Source: a virus
Lineage: Duplodnaviria > Heunggongvirae > Uroviricota > Caudoviricetes
Reading direction: 5' to 3' (one strand)
Virus record (IMG/VR): IMGVR_UViG_2703718833_000007
Coordinates: 1-64,000 of that record
Length of the DNA stretch: 64,000 nucleotides
A model generated the notes under the pieces. The model saw only the letters and a program-made list of their open reading frames with translations, was not told the DNA's origin and ran no database searches. Shown in pieces: positions 8,413-28,966 of the stretch. The stretch's first letter is position 1. Every line of letters begins with the position of its first letter. The translations under genes were made by a program, and so were the position numbers.

Positions 8413-9060
8413 ATGAAAACAAAATGGTATGACTTAGCGAAACAACTCATGCGGGCGCAGGGTATGAGTCAGGATTCATTGGCAGATCTCATGGGGATCA
8501 CAAAAGGCGGCTTGTCACACTGGCTTAACGGTCGCCGCGAGCCGAATCTTGAAGACATTGCGCGGATCATGCGGGCGCTTGGGCGTCGGCAATTCACTGT
8601 TACACATGATGGAATGGTCATTGATGATTCTGTTTCTAACACGTTGCCGGGAGCGCCACCGCGTGATTTAGGCAGTTACCCGGTTGTTGACTGGAAGGAT
8701 GTAGTAAACAATATGGAAGATGCAAGGCGATCAACATTACCACACGTTACGACTAGCGTTATTTGTTCAGATGATAGTTACTGGCTGGTAGCTAAAGGCG
8801 AATCAATGAACGCGCCGCAAGGATTGAGTATACCAGCGGGGACGATGATACTTGTCGATCCGCACGCGCCAGCTATTGATGGCAAACTGGTTATAGCCCA
8901 ATTGGAGGAGGGGCAGATACCGACGTTTAAACAGTTGATTATTGATGGAGGCAGAAAACTTTTGCGTTCACTGAATCCGTTGTATCCGCCAATCCCTATG
9001 AATCCAGAATCTAAAATCATAGGCGTGGTAGTGGATGCGAAGATCGTAAACCTGCCATAA
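8413..9060 (+). CDS. cI-like repressor (HTH-XRE plus S24 LexA-type peptidase domain)
   Basis: 215 aa; N-terminal HTH, C-terminal S24 peptidase with GESM serine motif and downstream lysine. Confidence 0.85.
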   Translation: MKTKWYDLAKQLMRAQGMSQDSLADLMGITKGGLSHWLNGRREPNLEDIARIMRALGRRQFTVTHDGMVIDDSVSNTLPGAPPRDLGSYPVVDWKDVVNNMEDARRSTLPHVTTSVICSDDSYWLVAKGESMNAPQGLSIPAGTMILVDPHAPAIDGKLVIAQLEEGQIPTFKQLIIDGGRKLLRSLNPLYPPIPMNPESKIIGVVVDAKIVNLP

Positions 9061-9346: not shown

Positions 9347-9637
9347 ATGACCGTTACAATCATGTATGGCAAATGTGATAGCAAAATAAACGCCAGGGAA
9401 CGCAGAAGAATAAAAAGAGAAAACGAAAGAAAATCATCACCTGCAATTAATAAAACAGACAATGTGGATAAAGCTATTCGCTTTGCAAACGAGGAAAGAT
9501 GCAAACCAAATAGCATTAAAGAACGTCGCAAAGGAGCAGTAAAATGGTATACGGAAAATGAAAGCGGCAACTACTACCACGCAACGCAACCACGCCAGTT
9601 AGGGGAAAAACCCCTTGATAAAGTCCGTTACCATTAA
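9347..9637 (+). CDS. N-like transcription antiterminator (arginine-rich motif protein)
   Basis: 96 aa, basic; N-proximal NARERRRIKRENERK resembles lambdoid N arginine-rich motif; first gene after promoter and nut-like site; AAGGAG RBS. Confidence 0.5.
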   Translation: MTVTIMYGKCDSKINARERRRIKRENERKSSPAINKTDNVDKAIRFANEERCKPNSIKERRKGAVKWYTENESGNYYHATQPRQLGEKPLDKVRYH

Positions 9638-9786: not shown

Positions 9787-10440
9787 GTGAAAACAGAGTT
9801 ACACAAAAAACTGTGGACGATTCAGCAAACGCTGAACGCGCCTAAAAATCAGCGTAATAATTTCGGCGGGTATAATTACAGATCAGCGGAGGATATTTTA
9901 GAAGCGGTTAAACCACTGCTTCAAAATATCACGCTGACTGTTAGTGATGAAATTGTCCTGATCGGCAATCGCTATTACGTGAAAGCAACGGCGACGCTAA
10001 GCGACGGTGAAGATGAAATAGCGGTAACGGCTTACGCCAGGGAGGAAGAAAGCAAGAAGGGAATGGACGCAAGCCAGCTAACAGGAGCAACATCAAGTTA
10101 CGCGCGGAAATATGCTTTGAACGGATTGTTCTGCATTGACGACGCCCGCGATCCTGATACTGACGCATACGCGAAGCAGACAGGCCAGCAGCCACGCCAG
10201 CAGAAAAATACGCCAAAACAGCAACCTAATCAGAAACCACAGCAGCAGAAAGCGCCGCCAAATCCTGATGAGGTGTTAGCACGTTTTTGTGATGCGGCAG
10301 CGAAAGCGCAGGACGAAAAAACACTAAGGGAAATATTCGGTAAATGTTGGAAGCTGTTACCTGAAAATTCAGAGCAACGGCAGAAAGCGCAAGATTGTTA
10401 CCAGATCCGTAAGGATGAACTGAATGGAACAATTAACTAA
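9787..10440 (+). CDS. Erf-family single-strand annealing protein
   Basis: 217 aa; Erf-like N-terminal domain, Q/P-rich C-terminus; GTG start with AAGGAG RBS. Confidence 0.7.
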   Translation: MKTELHKKLWTIQQTLNAPKNQRNNFGGYNYRSAEDILEAVKPLLQNITLTVSDEIVLIGNRYYVKATATLSDGEDEIAVTAYAREEESKKGMDASQLTGATSSYARKYALNGLFCIDDARDPDTDAYAKQTGQQPRQQKNTPKQQPNQKPQQQKAPPNPDEVLARFCDAAAKAQDEKTLREIFGKCWKLLPENSEQRQKAQDCYQIRKDELNGTIN

Positions 10441-11020
10441 AAAATGCACAAAATGCGGCAGAATCCTGCCGCTTAACTCTTTCCTGAAGCACAAATCATG
10501 CAAATACGGCGTAGCTGGTACATGTAAGGATTGCGCAAAGGTATACAGGGAAGCCAATAAAGACAAAATAGCCGAGCAAAATAGAAGATGGAGGGAAAAA
10601 CACAAGGAAGAAATTCGAGAAAAGGATAGAAAATACTACGAAGAACACAAAGAAGAATGTAATAAGCGAGCGAAAGAGTATCGTAAAAATAACAAAGAAA
10701 AAATATTGGAAAAGAAAAATAATTGGGTAAGAAGAAACGAGGAAAGGTTAAAGGAGTATAGGAGACAATACCACGAAGATTATAAAGAAAGAAATAAGGC
10801 GGAACTAAAGGCAAGAACAAAACTAAGCAACGCCATTAGAGATGGTAAAGTATTAAGGCCAAATAAATGTGATAGGTGCGGGAAAAAGTGCACTCCTGAT
10901 GGGCATCATTGGAATTATGCATATCCGCTAAATGTTGTTTGGTTATGCCGTTCTTGTCATAAGATAGTGCATTTTAAGTTTGGGTGTATACACGAAAACA
11001 TTAACGGGGAGATCGGTTAA
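10424..11020 (+). CDS. zinc-ribbon / Lys-Glu-rich / HNH-like nuclease-motif protein
   Basis: N-terminal CxxC...CxxC, highly charged KE-rich middle, C-terminal CxxC...HH...CxxCH HNH-like motif; A-rich composition. Confidence 0.45.
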   Translation: MEQLTKKCTKCGRILPLNSFLKHKSCKYGVAGTCKDCAKVYREANKDKIAEQNRRWREKHKEEIREKDRKYYEEHKEECNKRAKEYRKNNKEKILEKKNNWVRRNEERLKEYRRQYHEDYKERNKAELKARTKLSNAIRDGKVLRPNKCDRCGKKCTPDGHHWNYAYPLNVVWLCRSCHKIVHFKFGCIHENINGEIG

Positions 11021-11424
11021 TGAGCTTAAATTTAATCACACTTGGCGGTAATATTGGGAATGATATGAAAGTTCGCTACACGCAAAACGGGAAGGCGATT
11101 GGTAGTTTTTCGTTAGCTGTAACGAATGGATACGGTGATAATAAACGGACAATGTGGATCACTTGTCTGGTATTTGGCGAGCGTGCGGAAAAATTAGCGC
11201 CACATATCCGCAAGGGCGGGAAAATAGTGGTAAGCGGTCGCCTGGACGTTCGGCAATATGACTGGAACGACGGCACGAAGGGGACTGCGGTAGAAGTGGC
11301 GGTTAATGAGTTCGAATTTTGCAGCAGAAACGATCAGCAACCACAGCAACAGCAGCAACAGCAGAATAATGGCGGTGGATATGAAGAGCCGCCAATGGAT
11401 TTTGATGATTCAATTCCTTTTTAA
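11020..11424 (+). CDS. ssb: single-stranded DNA-binding protein
   Basis: 134 aa; OB-fold SSB pattern, Q-rich linker, acidic C-terminal tail ending DDSIPF. Confidence 0.85.
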   Translation: MSLNLITLGGNIGNDMKVRYTQNGKAIGSFSLAVTNGYGDNKRTMWITCLVFGERAEKLAPHIRKGGKIVVSGRLDVRQYDWNDGTKGTAVEVAVNEFEFCSRNDQQPQQQQQQQNNGGGYEEPPMDFDDSIPF

Positions 11425-11439
11425 ATCAATAGGTTAGCG

Positions 11440-11718
11440 ATGGTCGATTATTTAAAACCGCCACCGCCACCGCGAACAAAAGAGCAAGTATTAAAAGAAG
11501 CCCGTGATCAAATCGATCATGGGCTTTTTTTATGTGGCACGGCAGCGGAACGGATGGCAAAAAGATTCAGTGACCTGTACGCAAAACAAATATGGTTCGA
11601 CAACTGGCAGGCAAGTTTTTATCCACTGCAAAGAAAACCGGATATGCACTGGCCTGAATATGTCGATCCGCGTATGCGCAAATATCGCGGGCGTATGGGC
11701 CAGGTCATTAACGATTAA
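11440..11718 (+). CDS. hypothetical protein (92 aa)
   Basis: Operon-context ORF. Confidence 0.4.
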   Translation: MVDYLKPPPPPRTKEQVLKEARDQIDHGLFLCGTAAERMAKRFSDLYAKQIWFDNWQASFYPLQRKPDMHWPEYVDPRMRKYRGRMGQVIND

Positions 11719-15854: not shown

Positions 15855-16338
15855 CAGGTTATTAGCCTGCGTTTATGTCGCCGTTTTCGTGATCATCAAC
15901 CTTATTGTTAACCATTGCGGCCCGTGGGTAATTCCGATCACCACGGTAGCCGCTGTGTGTGTCAATATGATGATCCGTGACTTCTTGCTGTATGACGGCG
16001 GCTTGAAATGGTCTGCTACAACATGCGCCGCCGCTGGCGCAATCACGGTAATGATAAATTACGATGCTGGAATGGTAGCGATCGCGTCATTCGTTGCGGT
16101 TGTTTCCGGTGCGCTTATATCTGGAGGTGTTTACCGGGTTTTGCCTGGTGATTTCGATTCTAAGCGCTGGCCTGCAAACATAGCTTCAGCCATCGGGGAT
16201 GCGTTAATTTTCCCGACGCTATCGTTTATGGCGTTTATGCCGGAAATATCAGCGATGCAGTTTATCTCAAAAATGGCAGCGGTAACGGTGATCACTATCA
16301 TCATGCGCCGCTATTTCACGTTTGAGGGTAGAAAATGA
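15835..16338 (+). CDS. integral membrane protein, possible YhhQ-like queuosine-precursor transporter family
   Basis: 167 aa, multiple TM helices; segment VYRVLPG..SKRWPANIASAIGDALIF resembles a conserved region of YhhQ-family transporters as recalled; tentative. Confidence 0.3.
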   Translation: MKKVAIDRLLACVYVAVFVIINLIVNHCGPWVIPITTVAAVCVNMMIRDFLLYDGGLKWSATTCAAAGAITVMINYDAGMVAIASFVAVVSGALISGGVYRVLPGDFDSKRWPANIASAIGDALIFPTLSFMAFMPEISAMQFISKMAAVTVITIIMRRYFTFEGRK

Positions 16339-16862
16339 ATTGGGATGATTATTTTATATACAATCCGGACACAGGTAAGTTGTACTGGAAATATAGAAAT
16401 GACATAGAAGAATCAAGGCGTAAACAATGGAATGCGTGTAATGCTGGTCATGAGGTTGGACATATTGGCGGAAGCGGTGGGTGTCTTAATACAGCGCTTA
16501 CCGTTGGCGGAAAGCGTTATAATTTAAAAGTACATAGAATATGTTACGAGATGTACTATGGGCCAATACCTGAAGGTAAGGAGGTTGATCATATAAATCA
16601 CGTTAAAACAGATAATCGAGCCGTCAATCTTGGATTAAAAGACCATAAAGATAATATGCGCAACATGTCTTTAATGGTAAACAATACCAGTGGGTGCGCT
16701 GGTATCCATAAAAATAAACATGGTAAATGGGTTGTTAGAATCGGTGGAGGCAAAAGAGGTAATAGAATTTATATAGGGTGTTTTTCTGATATCAATGACG
16801 CAATAAAAGCTAGGCGCGACGCTGAAAGAAAGTATGGCTATCATGAAAATCACGGCAAATAG
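16335..16862 (+). CDS. HNH endonuclease with AP2 domain, copy 2
   Basis: VDHINH...N HNH_3 motif, AP2-like segment, C-terminal KYGYHENHGK. Confidence 0.8.
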   Translation: MNWDDYFIYNPDTGKLYWKYRNDIEESRRKQWNACNAGHEVGHIGGSGGCLNTALTVGGKRYNLKVHRICYEMYYGPIPEGKEVDHINHVKTDNRAVNLGLKDHKDNMRNMSLMVNNTSGCAGIHKNKHGKWVVRIGGGKRGNRIYIGCFSDINDAIKARRDAERKYGYHENHGK

Positions 16863-26999: not shown

Positions 27000-27485
27000 A
27001 TGGCCCGCACTAAAAAGGCAAAGGCTGACGATAAAAAGCCAGCAGCTAAAAAGGTGGGCCGTCCGCATGGTTATACCGAAGAAAAGGCATTAGAGATCTG
27101 TGAGCTGGTGGCGGACGGTCAGAGCGTTAACAAAATTTCAAAAATGCCAGGTATGCCAACACGTTCGACAATCCTTAAGTGGTTCCGTGATGTGCCTGAA
27201 TTTTCGGACATGTACGTGAGAGCGAAGGAGATCGGTTTTGAGGTATTAGCTGATGAGATCATCGATATAGCTGACGCAGCTGAGAATATTGATAAGGATG
27301 AATTGCGCCGCCATCAATTAATGATTGAAACCCGTAAATGGCTATTGGCAAAACTGCAACCGCGTAAATATGGTGAACGCGTCACGCAGGAAATCGTTGG
27401 TAACAGGGAGGAATCACCCGTCCAGGTTGAAGTCACGAAAGAAGAGATCGCCCGCATCGTCCAGGAAGTAGAAGACGAGGTGTGA
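27000..27485 (+). CDS. terminase small subunit
   Basis: 161 aa; basic N-terminus, HTH-like segment, directly upstream of large terminase; GAGGTGA RBS. Confidence 0.65.
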   Translation: MARTKKAKADDKKPAAKKVGRPHGYTEEKALEICELVADGQSVNKISKMPGMPTRSTILKWFRDVPEFSDMYVRAKEIGFEVLADEIIDIADAAENIDKDELRRHQLMIETRKWLLAKLQPRKYGERVTQEIVGNREESPVQVEVTKEEIARIVQEVEDEV

Positions 27486-28966
27486 TTATGTTGACAATCA
27501 AAGAACGAGTTATTCAGTCCAAATGTGAAAACGATGGCCTGTTTTTCAATCGCTATTTCTATAAACAAGCGAACGGAACGAAGATGTTAATCTCAGGCCA
27601 TCATTTAGCTATCCGTGATGCACTGCAACGCGTTATTAATGGTGAGATCACCCGCCTCATCATTAACATCCCCCCAGGGTACGGCAAAACCATGATCGCA
27701 ACTATCAACATGATGGCGCGGTCACTCGCAATAAATCCCCGCACAAGATTCCTTCACGTTTCCTATTCCAACAACCTGGCATTACTCAATTCCTCGACTG
27801 TAAGAAACATGATCTGTACGCCTGAATATCAGGCAATGTGGCCCATGAAGATCCGCAACGATGCCAACAGTAAATCGATGTGGTGGACTGAATACGGTGG
27901 CGGCGTGTATGCAACGTCATCGCTTGGCCAGGTAACTGGGTTCCGTGCAGGGTATATGGAACCGGGATTTAACGGCGCGTTAATCATCGACGACCCATTA
28001 AAACCGGCTGACGCTTACTCTGACGTGGTGAGAAAGCAGGTAAACACCAACTATAACGACACACTTGCTTCACGTCTGGCAGTGCAAACAACGCCTGTCA
28101 TCGTCATCATGCAGCGCATCCACTACGATGATTTGTCCGGCTACTTGCTACGCGGTGGGAGCGGTGAAAAGTGGTATCACCTTAACCTGCCAGTGAAGAT
28201 CGACAATAGCGTTGACTATCGGGATTTGTACCCTGAAAACGAGTTCGCAATCCCTATCGCTCACAACCTGCCTGATGGCTGGCTGTGGCCTAAAAAGCAC
28301 AATGACGCCCATGAAGCTGGACTGAAAGCACACAGGCGGTCATTTGAAGCCCAGTACATGCAGCGCCCGCGTAAATTCGACGAAGAGGGTGCATTGTGGA
28401 CTGAAGCCATGATAACCGCAGCGCACCGGATGCAGATAACGCAGGATAAGGTTCGCACGGTGATAGCCATAGACCCGGCGACAACGTCATCTGACGAATC
28501 GGACGAAACGGGGATCGTGGCATGTTCCGCCTATGGTGGCGGCAAGAATGCTCAGTATTCTGTTGATGGCGACTACTCAGGCCGCATGTCTCCTAACGAC
28601 TGGGCGCAAGCCTCAATGAACGCCTACAACATCCATGAAGCTGACGCGATAGTTATCGAAACCAACCAGGGCGGCGAAATGGCAGAGGCCACGTTGCGTA
28701 ATGCCGGATTCAAGGGCCGCATTGTTAAGGTGCACGCAAGCAAAGGTAAGTTCGCCCGTGCTGAACCAATATCCGCACTATATGCGCAGGGAAGGGTAGC
28801 CCACACTGGCAGCCTGTACACGCTGGAGAATCAAATGATGGAATACGTGCCAGCCACCGCAAAAAAATCCCCTGACCGTATGGACGCTATGGTATGGGGA
28901 ATCACTGAATTAAGCCAACCGCAGGCAATGGGCCTCATGTTACCGAAGCGCCTGCGCGGATTTTAA
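27482..28966 (+). CDS. terminase large subunit (likely ATG start at 27488)
   Basis: 494 aa; P-loop-like PPGYGKT, ATPase plus nuclease arrangement. Confidence 0.8.
   Translation: MIMLTIKERVIQSKCENDGLFFNRYFYKQANGTKMLISGHHLAIRDALQRVINGEITRLIINIPPGYGKTMIATINMMARSLAINPRTRFLHVSYSNNLALLNSSTVRNMICTPEYQAMWPMKIRNDANSKSMWWTEYGGGVYATSSLGQVTGFRAGYMEPGFNGALIIDDPLKPADAYSDVVRKQVNTNYNDTLASRLAVQTTPVIVIMQRIHYDDLSGYLLRGGSGEKWYHLNLPVKIDNSVDYRDLYPENEFAIPIAHNLPDGWLWPKKHNDAHEAGLKAHRRSFEAQYMQRPRKFDEEGALWTEAMITAAHRMQITQDKVRTVIAIDPATTSSDESDETGIVACSAYGGGKNAQYSVDGDYSGRMSPNDWAQASMNAYNIHEADAIVIETNQGGEMAEATLRNAGFKGRIVKVHASKGKFARAEPISALYAQGRVAHTGSLYTLENQMMEYVPATAKKSPDRMDAMVWGITELSQPQAMGLMLPKRLRGF

Follow-up and report, generated by a model that had tools for sequence, protein, structure and literature searches.

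The stretch of DNA considered here (hereafter the window) comprises 64,000 nucleotides (nt), positions 1 to 64,000 of the IMG/VR record IMGVR_UViG_2703718833_000007, and belongs to an Escherichia coli prophage of the 'mEpimmI' group of Nus-dependent coliphages. Its closest phage records are mEp013, mEp044, mEp010, mEp554 and mEp021, and the prophage is integrated in the E. coli chromosome beside dbpA-ttcA-intR (99.9% identity to K-12). The operon that starts after a cI-like repressor gene (8413-9060) contains, on the plus strand like the parts of the locus described below, an open reading frame (ORF) of 198 amino acids (aa) with an ATG start at 10424..11020, which is flanked upstream by the recombination gene erf (9787..10440; Pfam ERF, 4.9e-42) and downstream by ssb (11020..11424; Pfam SSB, 8.9e-23). 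The ORF overlaps erf by 17 nt, and its stop, the TAA of a TAATG, overlaps the ATG of ssb. Its reading frame is preserved in homologs at 64-97% identity and the ratio of non-synonymous to synonymous substitution (dN/dS) is 0.04-0.14, as expected of a real gene and not of a chance ORF. The gene is annotated as 'hypothetical' in mEp013 and in the prophage of E. coli RM9245, and it is not mentioned in the paper that describes the mEpimmI group. In the following we argue that it merits annotation as an HNH homing endonuclease.

The architecture of the protein is as the original prediction had described it, with an N-terminal CxxC..CxxC ribbon, a charged repetitive middle and a C-terminal CxxC..HH..CxxCH motif. 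The four-cysteine zinc ribbon (10445..10534) carries the motif C8-x2-C11...C34-x2-C37 together with an F20 that is invariant in homolog alignments, in which the ribbon residues, like those of the C-terminal motif, form invariant or near-invariant columns; an AlphaFold2 (AF2) model places beta strands at residues 5-34 and helices at residues 35-139. When searched alone against PHROG, residues 1-44 match phrog_1035 (2.2e-10), a Lar-like family (6e-8) and phrog_2340 (3e-7), and phage proteins of the 'endonuclease VII' and HNH families also carry this module N-terminally. The middle part (residues 41-130; 10544..10813) consists of six tandem 15-residue units with the consensus [YW][RY]xx[NH]K[ED]x[IL]x6, which are rich in Lys, Glu and Arg, helical in the AF2 model, and reflected in a lag-15 autocorrelation of z = 6.2 against shuffled sequences (z = 10-14 in relatives with other nuclease domains). 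Finally, the C-terminal nuclease module (residues 131-186; 10814..10981) comprises a 'SNAIRDGK' helix followed by a beta-beta-alpha unit and bears the motif C149-x2-C152..H161-H162..N170..C175-x2-C178-H179..H183, in which C149, C152, C175 and C178 are the zinc residues.

The family to which the protein belongs is indicated by a match over nearly its full length to PHROG 2340, 'endonuclease' (1e-33; protein residues 2-187, profile positions 5-164 of 171), and the C-terminal 74 residues alone suffice to recover phrog_2340 (2.8e-19). An exhaustive HMMER search with the same 74 residues retrieved 18,322 cluster representatives at E <= 1e-3. In a sample of 60 members C149, C152, H161, H162, Y165, C175, C178 and H179 are invariant, and alignments of 15, 48 and 60 members agree in that H161-H162 and H179 are invariant, position 170 is N, D or Q, and H183 is at least 90% conserved. 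This register equals that of D53-H54, N68 and N77 in Gme HNHE (Gmet_0936, PDB 4h9d), a small stand-alone bacterial HNH endonuclease with weak, non-specific, Mn-dependent nicking activity (PMC3765158, PMC3592412). Far from being absent, the HNH catalytic residues thus align: the C-terminus combines a beta-beta-alpha-metal fold with a catalytic His on the first strand, a structural Asn and a metal-binding His/Asn on the helix.

By contrast, the curated HNH profiles do not recognise the protein. No HNH family of Pfam-A matches the query at E < 1, a single one of 60 relatives touches a Pfam HNH model (HNH_5, 0.0019), and an NCBIfam scan of the query and 60 family members returned no match; PHROG families labelled 'HNH endonuclease' match weakly (3e-5 to 7e-3). 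Phmmer and profile searches of PDB sequences were likewise weak (IscB HNH, E = 0.097; 9qgx, E = 0.19), and a deeper profile of 48 sequences retrieved C2H2 zinc-finger noise only. Dominated as it is by its long helical stalk, the full-length model found no PDB structure below E = 0.5 in a Foldseek search, and an AF2 prediction of the C-terminal domain alone, made with no alignment, was poor (pLDDT 59.6) and set aside. An hhalign comparison of the C-terminal profile with nine HNH, HNH_4 or HNH_5 domains of proteins sharing the repeats gave a probability of 2%, to which we attach no weight, the template set being small and of another subtype. HNH fold and residues are therefore present though curated profiles pass the protein over. 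A very large nuclease family, of more than 18,000 cluster representatives and including I-KsaII, hence escapes the Pfam-A and NCBIfam copies used here. Two short members of the family (P0014 and P0019) carry the precomputed label PF27269.1, which is absent from the Pfam-A copy that was scanned; a newer Pfam entry for the family may thus already exist. A scan of GTDB, with one genome per species, yielded no close relative and only look-alikes of the repeat region.

The most informative named relative is I-KsaII, encoded by an ORF in a group I intron of polA in the Staphylococcus Kayvirus phages K, P4W, Staph1N and 812. It is 40% identical in the nuclease module and 35% identical over residues 68-185 (pairwise E = 7e-23), and a tblastn search found 132 Staphylococcus phage records that correspond to I-KsaII in the polA intron of phage K-like viruses. 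Over the aligned part both proteins share the second half of the ribbon, a Lys/Arg/Glu-rich helical linker, an 'ALRNG.LIRP' helix and the motif C-x2-C..HH.DY..PL.(I/V).WLC.SCH...H. They differ in that I-KsaII is intron-borne within an essential gene, 170 aa long and devoid of a regular array of six 15-aa units, whereas the window gene is free-standing at a gene boundary. Another family member lies between the halves of a split DNA polymerase gene in Bacillus phage JBP901, and such locations, in the polA intron and in the split polymerase, are classic positions of homing endonucleases. We found no biochemical characterisation of I-KsaII or of the window protein in the literature searched. With its full-length profile match, ribbon, helical linker, SNAIRDGK helix and HNH motif, the protein is best read as a predicted I-KsaII-like zinc-ribbon HNH endonuclease.

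Two other assignments were considered and rejected. Phage zinc-ribbon HNH endonucleases of the HK97 gp74 type are encoded beside terminase and have a role in packaging (PMC3765158, PMC3592412); the terminase genes of the window (small subunit 27000-27485, large subunit 27482-28966) lie about 16 kb away from the gene under study, which is located in the early recombination operon and not beside terminase or cos, and its product differs from both Gme HNHE and the gp74 type by the additional ribbon and the repeat array. Proteins of the T4 endonuclease VII type (PHROG 1035/2633) share the N-terminal CxxC..F..G..CxxC ribbon with the window protein, and some of its relatives are annotated as 'endonuclease VII'. 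Only the ribbon matches convincingly, however: there is no match to the catalytic profile Endonuclease_7 of Pfam, the catalytic module is I-KsaII-like, and nothing in the data points to a junction-resolving activity.

The position of the gene becomes clear from comparison with phages and prophages that lack it. We defined the junction by a multiple alignment of six occupied and four empty loci. Empty sites were found in mEp044, mEp010, mEp554, MagusPhagus, mEp021, mEp515 and about 30 E. coli prophages. There, erf ends in ..AAA GAG CTT AAC GGG GAG ATC GGT TAA TG, its stop overlapping the ATG of ssb; such sites read ..AAAGAGC followed across the insertion point by TTAACGGGGAGATCGGTTAATG, and the empty junction of mEp044 and E. 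coli strain 190 contains ..AAAGAGCTTAACGGGGAGATCGGTTAATGAGC.. The occupied homologs are those of mEp013, E. coli RM9245 and three assembly contigs, together with a frameshifted copy in E. coli E21845; all homologs at 64-97% identity sit in the same slot. In the window, as in all close homologs examined, an insert of about 580 bp (10421..11000 in the window) follows the Leu codon, although its boundaries are uncertain by a few nt owing to the microhomology ..GA(A/G)CT(G/T)AA(T/C)GG... Close relatives thus differ by presence or absence of the gene at one precise site.

Both edges of this insert are accommodated in the reading frames around it. On the left, the occupied loci have a cassette-specific erf tail, ..YQIRKDELNGTIN and a stop, within a recoded erf 3' end (10381..10440) that separates occupied from empty alleles: the former share YQ(I/L)R and ELNG..N-stop, the latter YDIR and ELNGEIG-stop. 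Compared with empty sites, the ELNG codons carry synonymous changes (GAGCTTAACGGG to GAACTGAATGGA), and it is this recoding of the erf tail that creates the ATG of the nuclease gene (AATGGA, 10424), 17 nt before the new stop of erf. It also gives rise to a Shine-Dalgarno-like AAGGA at 10411-10415; AAGGA or GAGGAG occurs a few bases ahead of the ATG in the window and mEp013 and not in all alleles. On the right, the nuclease ORF continues into the former end of erf, ..ATT AAC GGG GAG ATC GGT TAA TG, retained unchanged at 11001..11020 (TTAACGGGGAGATCGGTTAA, encoding ..(L/I)NGEIG-stop), and uses the old stop of erf, so that the TAATG coupling is shifted from erf-ssb to nuclease-ssb. The original prediction that the gene is wedged between erf and ssb is accordingly right as to its neighbours and needs refinement as to its position, for the gene begins inside the last codons of erf and reuses its stop. 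The alignment suggests that the element lies within the last erf codons and restores what its insertion interrupts. Such a tidy cassette, with a substitute erf tail, an embedded start codon and a borrowed stop, is mildly new.

The same cassette is found in a diverged erf on the L010 contig (55 kb), which has a lambdoid backbone with the gene order cIII, kil, erf, nuclease, a 127-aa gene unrelated to ssb, abc2 and ead, and in which the homolog (P0007) is 76% identical. Its empty-site counterparts are phages of the HK446, HK544, mEp213 and CUS-3 type, in which erf ends in ..GAA TTA GAA GGA GCG GCT GCT TAA TGG (ELEGAAA-stop) and the junction includes ..GACGAATTAGAAGGAGCGGCTGCTTAATGG.. In L010 it is the nuclease gene that ends in ..AAC ATT GAA GGA GCT GCT TAA TGG (..NIEGAA-stop), while the erf tail reads ELNGATN-stop; since the end sequences match the HK446-type erf end, the insertion was made at the homologous codon. 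Moreover, the L010 erf is about 100% identical to that of HK446 over its first ~420 nt, whereas over the remaining ~200 nt it abruptly becomes 87-100% identical to erf of mEpimmI carriers. The donor-type 3' end of this chimeric gene is a co-conversion tract on the 5' side of the cassette, and none is seen on the 3' side. The comparison therefore reveals lateral transfer into a cognate site with flanking co-conversion on one side only, and the cassette is now documented in two unrelated temperate-phage backbones, mEpimmI and HK446-type lambdoid, which is likewise mildly new.

Far from being universally present in relatives, the insert DNA occurs in 2 of 5,426 complete E. coli genomes. Two of 35 erf-ssb sites of the mEpimmI type are occupied, one of seven related phage records carries the nuclease gene, and HK446-type erf is unoccupied throughout (0/597 E. 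coli genomes and 0/52 phage records). The composition of the gene is foreign, as the original prediction had noted on the basis of its A-richness. Its A content is 0.432, as against 0.27-0.35 in most neighbours, its GC content 0.370 (0.46 for erf and ssb) and its GC at third codon positions 0.374 (about 0.46 in erf and ssb); Arg is encoded by AGA or AGG in 16 of 20 cases, compared with 22 of 114 in 12 neighbouring genes (Fisher p = 2.4e-7). The A-richness is largely due to the content of Lys, Glu and Asn, and synonymous usage is foreign as well. A 96-aa ORF upstream of erf (9347-9637), whose MagusPhagus homolog bears the annotation N-like antitermination protein, has an A content of 0.436 and a GC content of 0.395; because it is equally A-rich, A-richness alone is no marker of foreign genes in this operon. 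The gene is thus a compositionally foreign insertion absent from most relatives, as the idea of recent acquisition would have it, but it is not a recent arrival in the slot. The alleles found there are near saturation at synonymous sites (pS 0.45-0.8), and dN/dS, which is as low as 0.04-0.06 in the nuclease module, points to purifying selection; together these values mean that the gene is functional and old in its place.

Taken together, the data lead us to read the ORF as a homing endonuclease gene (HEG), free-standing in an mEpimmI-type prophage and belonging to the I-KsaII-like zinc-ribbon HNH family, a reading to which we assign a probability of roughly 0.78. It would be a well-documented case of something already known, a selfish gene lodged at the exact boundary of two phage recombination genes. 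The protein would bind DNA through its N-terminal zinc ribbon and the helical repeats with their basic and acidic residues, and its beta-beta-alpha-metal module would nick or cut the erf-ssb junction where this is uninterrupted, in a related phage or prophage without the gene; the protein may be a nickase, as are many phage HNH homing enzymes and the closest solved fold. Repair of the break, templated by the carrier, would give the recipient a copy of the nuclease gene along with neighbouring sequence from the 3' end of erf. The carrier itself would be immune, because its site is split by the insertion and the adjacent ELNG codons are recoded. The cassette would also spare the host operon by supplying an erf C-terminus and stop, by placing its own ATG inside that tail and by ending on the recipient's erf stop. 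Nuclease activity, the choice between nicking and double-strand cutting, the exact recognition site and ongoing homing are what we infer from the sequences compared. The sequence of the empty site offers itself as a candidate substrate for what would be a new site-specific enzyme, nicking or cutting, and the locus offers a clean picture, at the level of sequence, of how a free-standing HEG can enter a tightly coupled operon of a temperate coliphage and leave it unbroken.

It might alternatively be supposed that the nuclease is a domesticated accessory of the Erf/SSB module, which provides nicks or ends for annealing by Erf and is kept for the benefit of the phage. The gene is indeed nested in erf and ssb, is coupled to both in translation and is under strong purifying selection; family members recur beside ssb and Erf in the second slot (described below) of mEp554, mEp515 and mEp021 and in Phapecoctavirus, the order exoVIII-erf-ssb-endonuclease is found in Drexlerviridae and exo-ssb-HNH in a podovirus, and Gme HNHE, the closest solved fold, was proposed to act in repair or recombination. 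We nevertheless consider this unlikely. The gene is dispensable, with about 94% of mEpimmI-type modules and all 649 HK446-type modules surveyed lacking it, and adjacency to conserved essential genes is general for phage HEGs (PMC10448857). The same family also occurs in the polA intron, between the halves of a split polymerase, and beside primase/helicase, ATPase and baseplate genes, locations that fit selfish elements associated with target genes and not a cofactor of recombination. A base-precise cassette, an erf tail that is both duplicated and recoded, and an erf of chimeric origin are typical signs of invasion. It is the precise junction, the co-converted erf of L010 and the homology to the intron-borne I-KsaII that speak for a selfish HEG instead of a helper of Erf and SSB. 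Of the original prediction of an accessory nuclease, the nuclease part is upheld by the HNH-type motif with its intact catalytic and zinc residues, and the accessory role gives way to probable homing.

A slightly smaller chance still is given to a weapon directed against other phages or prophages, which would cut the erf-ssb junction of competitors and to which conversion would be a mere by-product. The evidence for it is that for homing, with which its mechanism overlaps, and the sequence data do not separate the two; that so old a lineage occupies so few sites could indicate selection chiefly for a trait other than spread, and phage HEGs have been framed in the literature as agents of marker exclusion and competition. 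The co-converted erf tract of L010, on the other hand, shows that copying into a foreign genome did occur. That the gene is a decaying or inactive remnant of a former HEG, carried passively, is the least probable of these proposals. Occupancy is very low, and the in-slot copy of E21845 (L022) is unannotated and carries a +1 frameshift; this lies in an A7 run, however, and may represent either a decaying copy or a homopolymer sequencing error. The window copy and seven other clusters are of full length with all catalytic and zinc residues intact, and the dN/dS of 0.04-0.06 in the nuclease module, a mark of purifying selection, contradicts this proposal.

Free-standing HNH HEGs of T4-like phages (e.g. 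MobE, PMC2790892) and those of ICP1 and other phages (PMC10448857) resemble the window gene in their location at the edges of conserved genes, their sporadic distribution, the co-conversion of flanking DNA and a modular build with DNA-binding modules and recombination-prone internal repeats. The window gene differs in its host, a temperate Nus-dependent siphovirus prophage and not a virulent myovirus, in its HNH subfamily and domain order (the nuclease being C-terminal) and in its unusually tidy cassette, and homing is in its case predicted from comparison. Modular zinc-finger DNA-binding regions, internal repeats and domain swapping are known from other phage HEG families (PMC10448857), and the present family agrees with this domain shuffling, as its ribbon and repeats are fused to various nuclease domains: some relatives match in the ribbon and repeats only and have HNH, HNH_4, HNH_5 or GIY-YIG domains at their C-termini. 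The copy number of the repeats ranges roughly from 0 to 12 across relatives, and short members of 135-146 aa are almost without them. Within the clade occupying the erf-ssb slot the repeat region evolves fastest (56% nt identity, with different lengths, between the window and L009). The alleles of L009 and E21845, with diverged and shorter repeats (187 aa), occupy the identical slot. Since the repeats diverge while the slot stays the same, the array is probably not the determinant of target specificity, and more likely serves as an affinity or spacer element.

Besides its coding function, the 5' part of the gene harbours a GC-rich hairpin, GCGGCAG-aatc-CTGCCGC (10455..10472), with a T-rich tail to about 10484, which lies in the codons for C11-G-R-I-L-P16 and thus within the first 20 codons. 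All six carriers retain it, mEp013 and RM9245 with a single compensatory synonymous pair (C:G to T:A), and its stability exceeds that of 97-99% of synonymous recodings. The structure is terminator-like and annotated as a terminator in mEp013 (L001 2143-2185); a scan of the window flags it on the minus strand only. The paralog of mEp554 and RM9245 (33% identical) has a hairpin of its own at the matching C-G-x-x-L-P-L-x-x-F codons (L003 2615-2653), whose stem, GGGGCG/TGCCCC, is another one and precedes TTTCTTCTTTCT; similar hairpins are present in morffagbaw and Vibrio phage 1220 g2, and none was found at those codons in JBP901 or ctDrO704. As a more far-reaching proposal, which we put forward as doubtful, both the array and the hairpin could be functional elements not described so far. 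The 15-residue array, which precedes HNH, HNH_4, HNH_5 and GIY-YIG domains in 0 to 12 or more copies, might then serve homing endonucleases as a portable module of its own kind for binding DNA or as a 'ruler', and the hairpin, which recurs in members from Drexlerviridae and a Vibrio phage, might be a conserved cis-regulator that throttles expression of the endonuclease.

The erf-ssb junction is not the only nuclease-gene slot in this part of the genome. Several mEpimmI phages possess a full-length paralog (33% identity to the window protein, E = 3e-24) directly after ssb and overlapping its 3' end, namely mEp554 (L003 2548-3111), RM9245 (L012 4655-5185), mEp021 and mEp515. In the window no gene occupies this second slot, as ssb ends in ..IPF-stop at 11424 and is followed by a gene starting at 11440. 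The ssb ORF of mEp013, mEp554 and RM9245 extends 15-16 codons past the canonical ..IPF (e.g. ..IPFSPVGLQYGRHRIYAL and a stop), which may be a consequence or scar of second-slot insertion; in mEp013 the extension is present and the second-slot nuclease gene absent. An SSB tip extended in this way could affect partner binding. A third slot is seen in E. coli E21845/O/A, where another annotated HNH endonuclease gene lies immediately upstream of erf in addition to the insert (L022 446-913 and 1566-2112), so that the erf-ssb-abc2 recombination module appears as a hotspot offering three or more slots for nuclease genes.

Similarly, family members directly follow ssb, in many cases overlapping its end, in four unrelated phage groups, represented by Drexlerviridae (L015, L018), Phapecoctavirus (L016) and the podovirus ctDrO704 (L017), and two of these ssb-adjacent groups have exonuclease-erf-ssb modules. 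This recurrence suggests a sub-lineage that may be specialised on ssb-flanking targets across unrelated phage groups. The window contains, finally, a second and unrelated HNH gene at 16335-16862 on the plus strand, which encodes a putative homing-type protein of 175 aa (Pfam HNH_3, 3.2e-16). A megablast search of the phage collection with this ORF gave no match; HNH_3 genes are present elsewhere in the related contigs L009 and L010.

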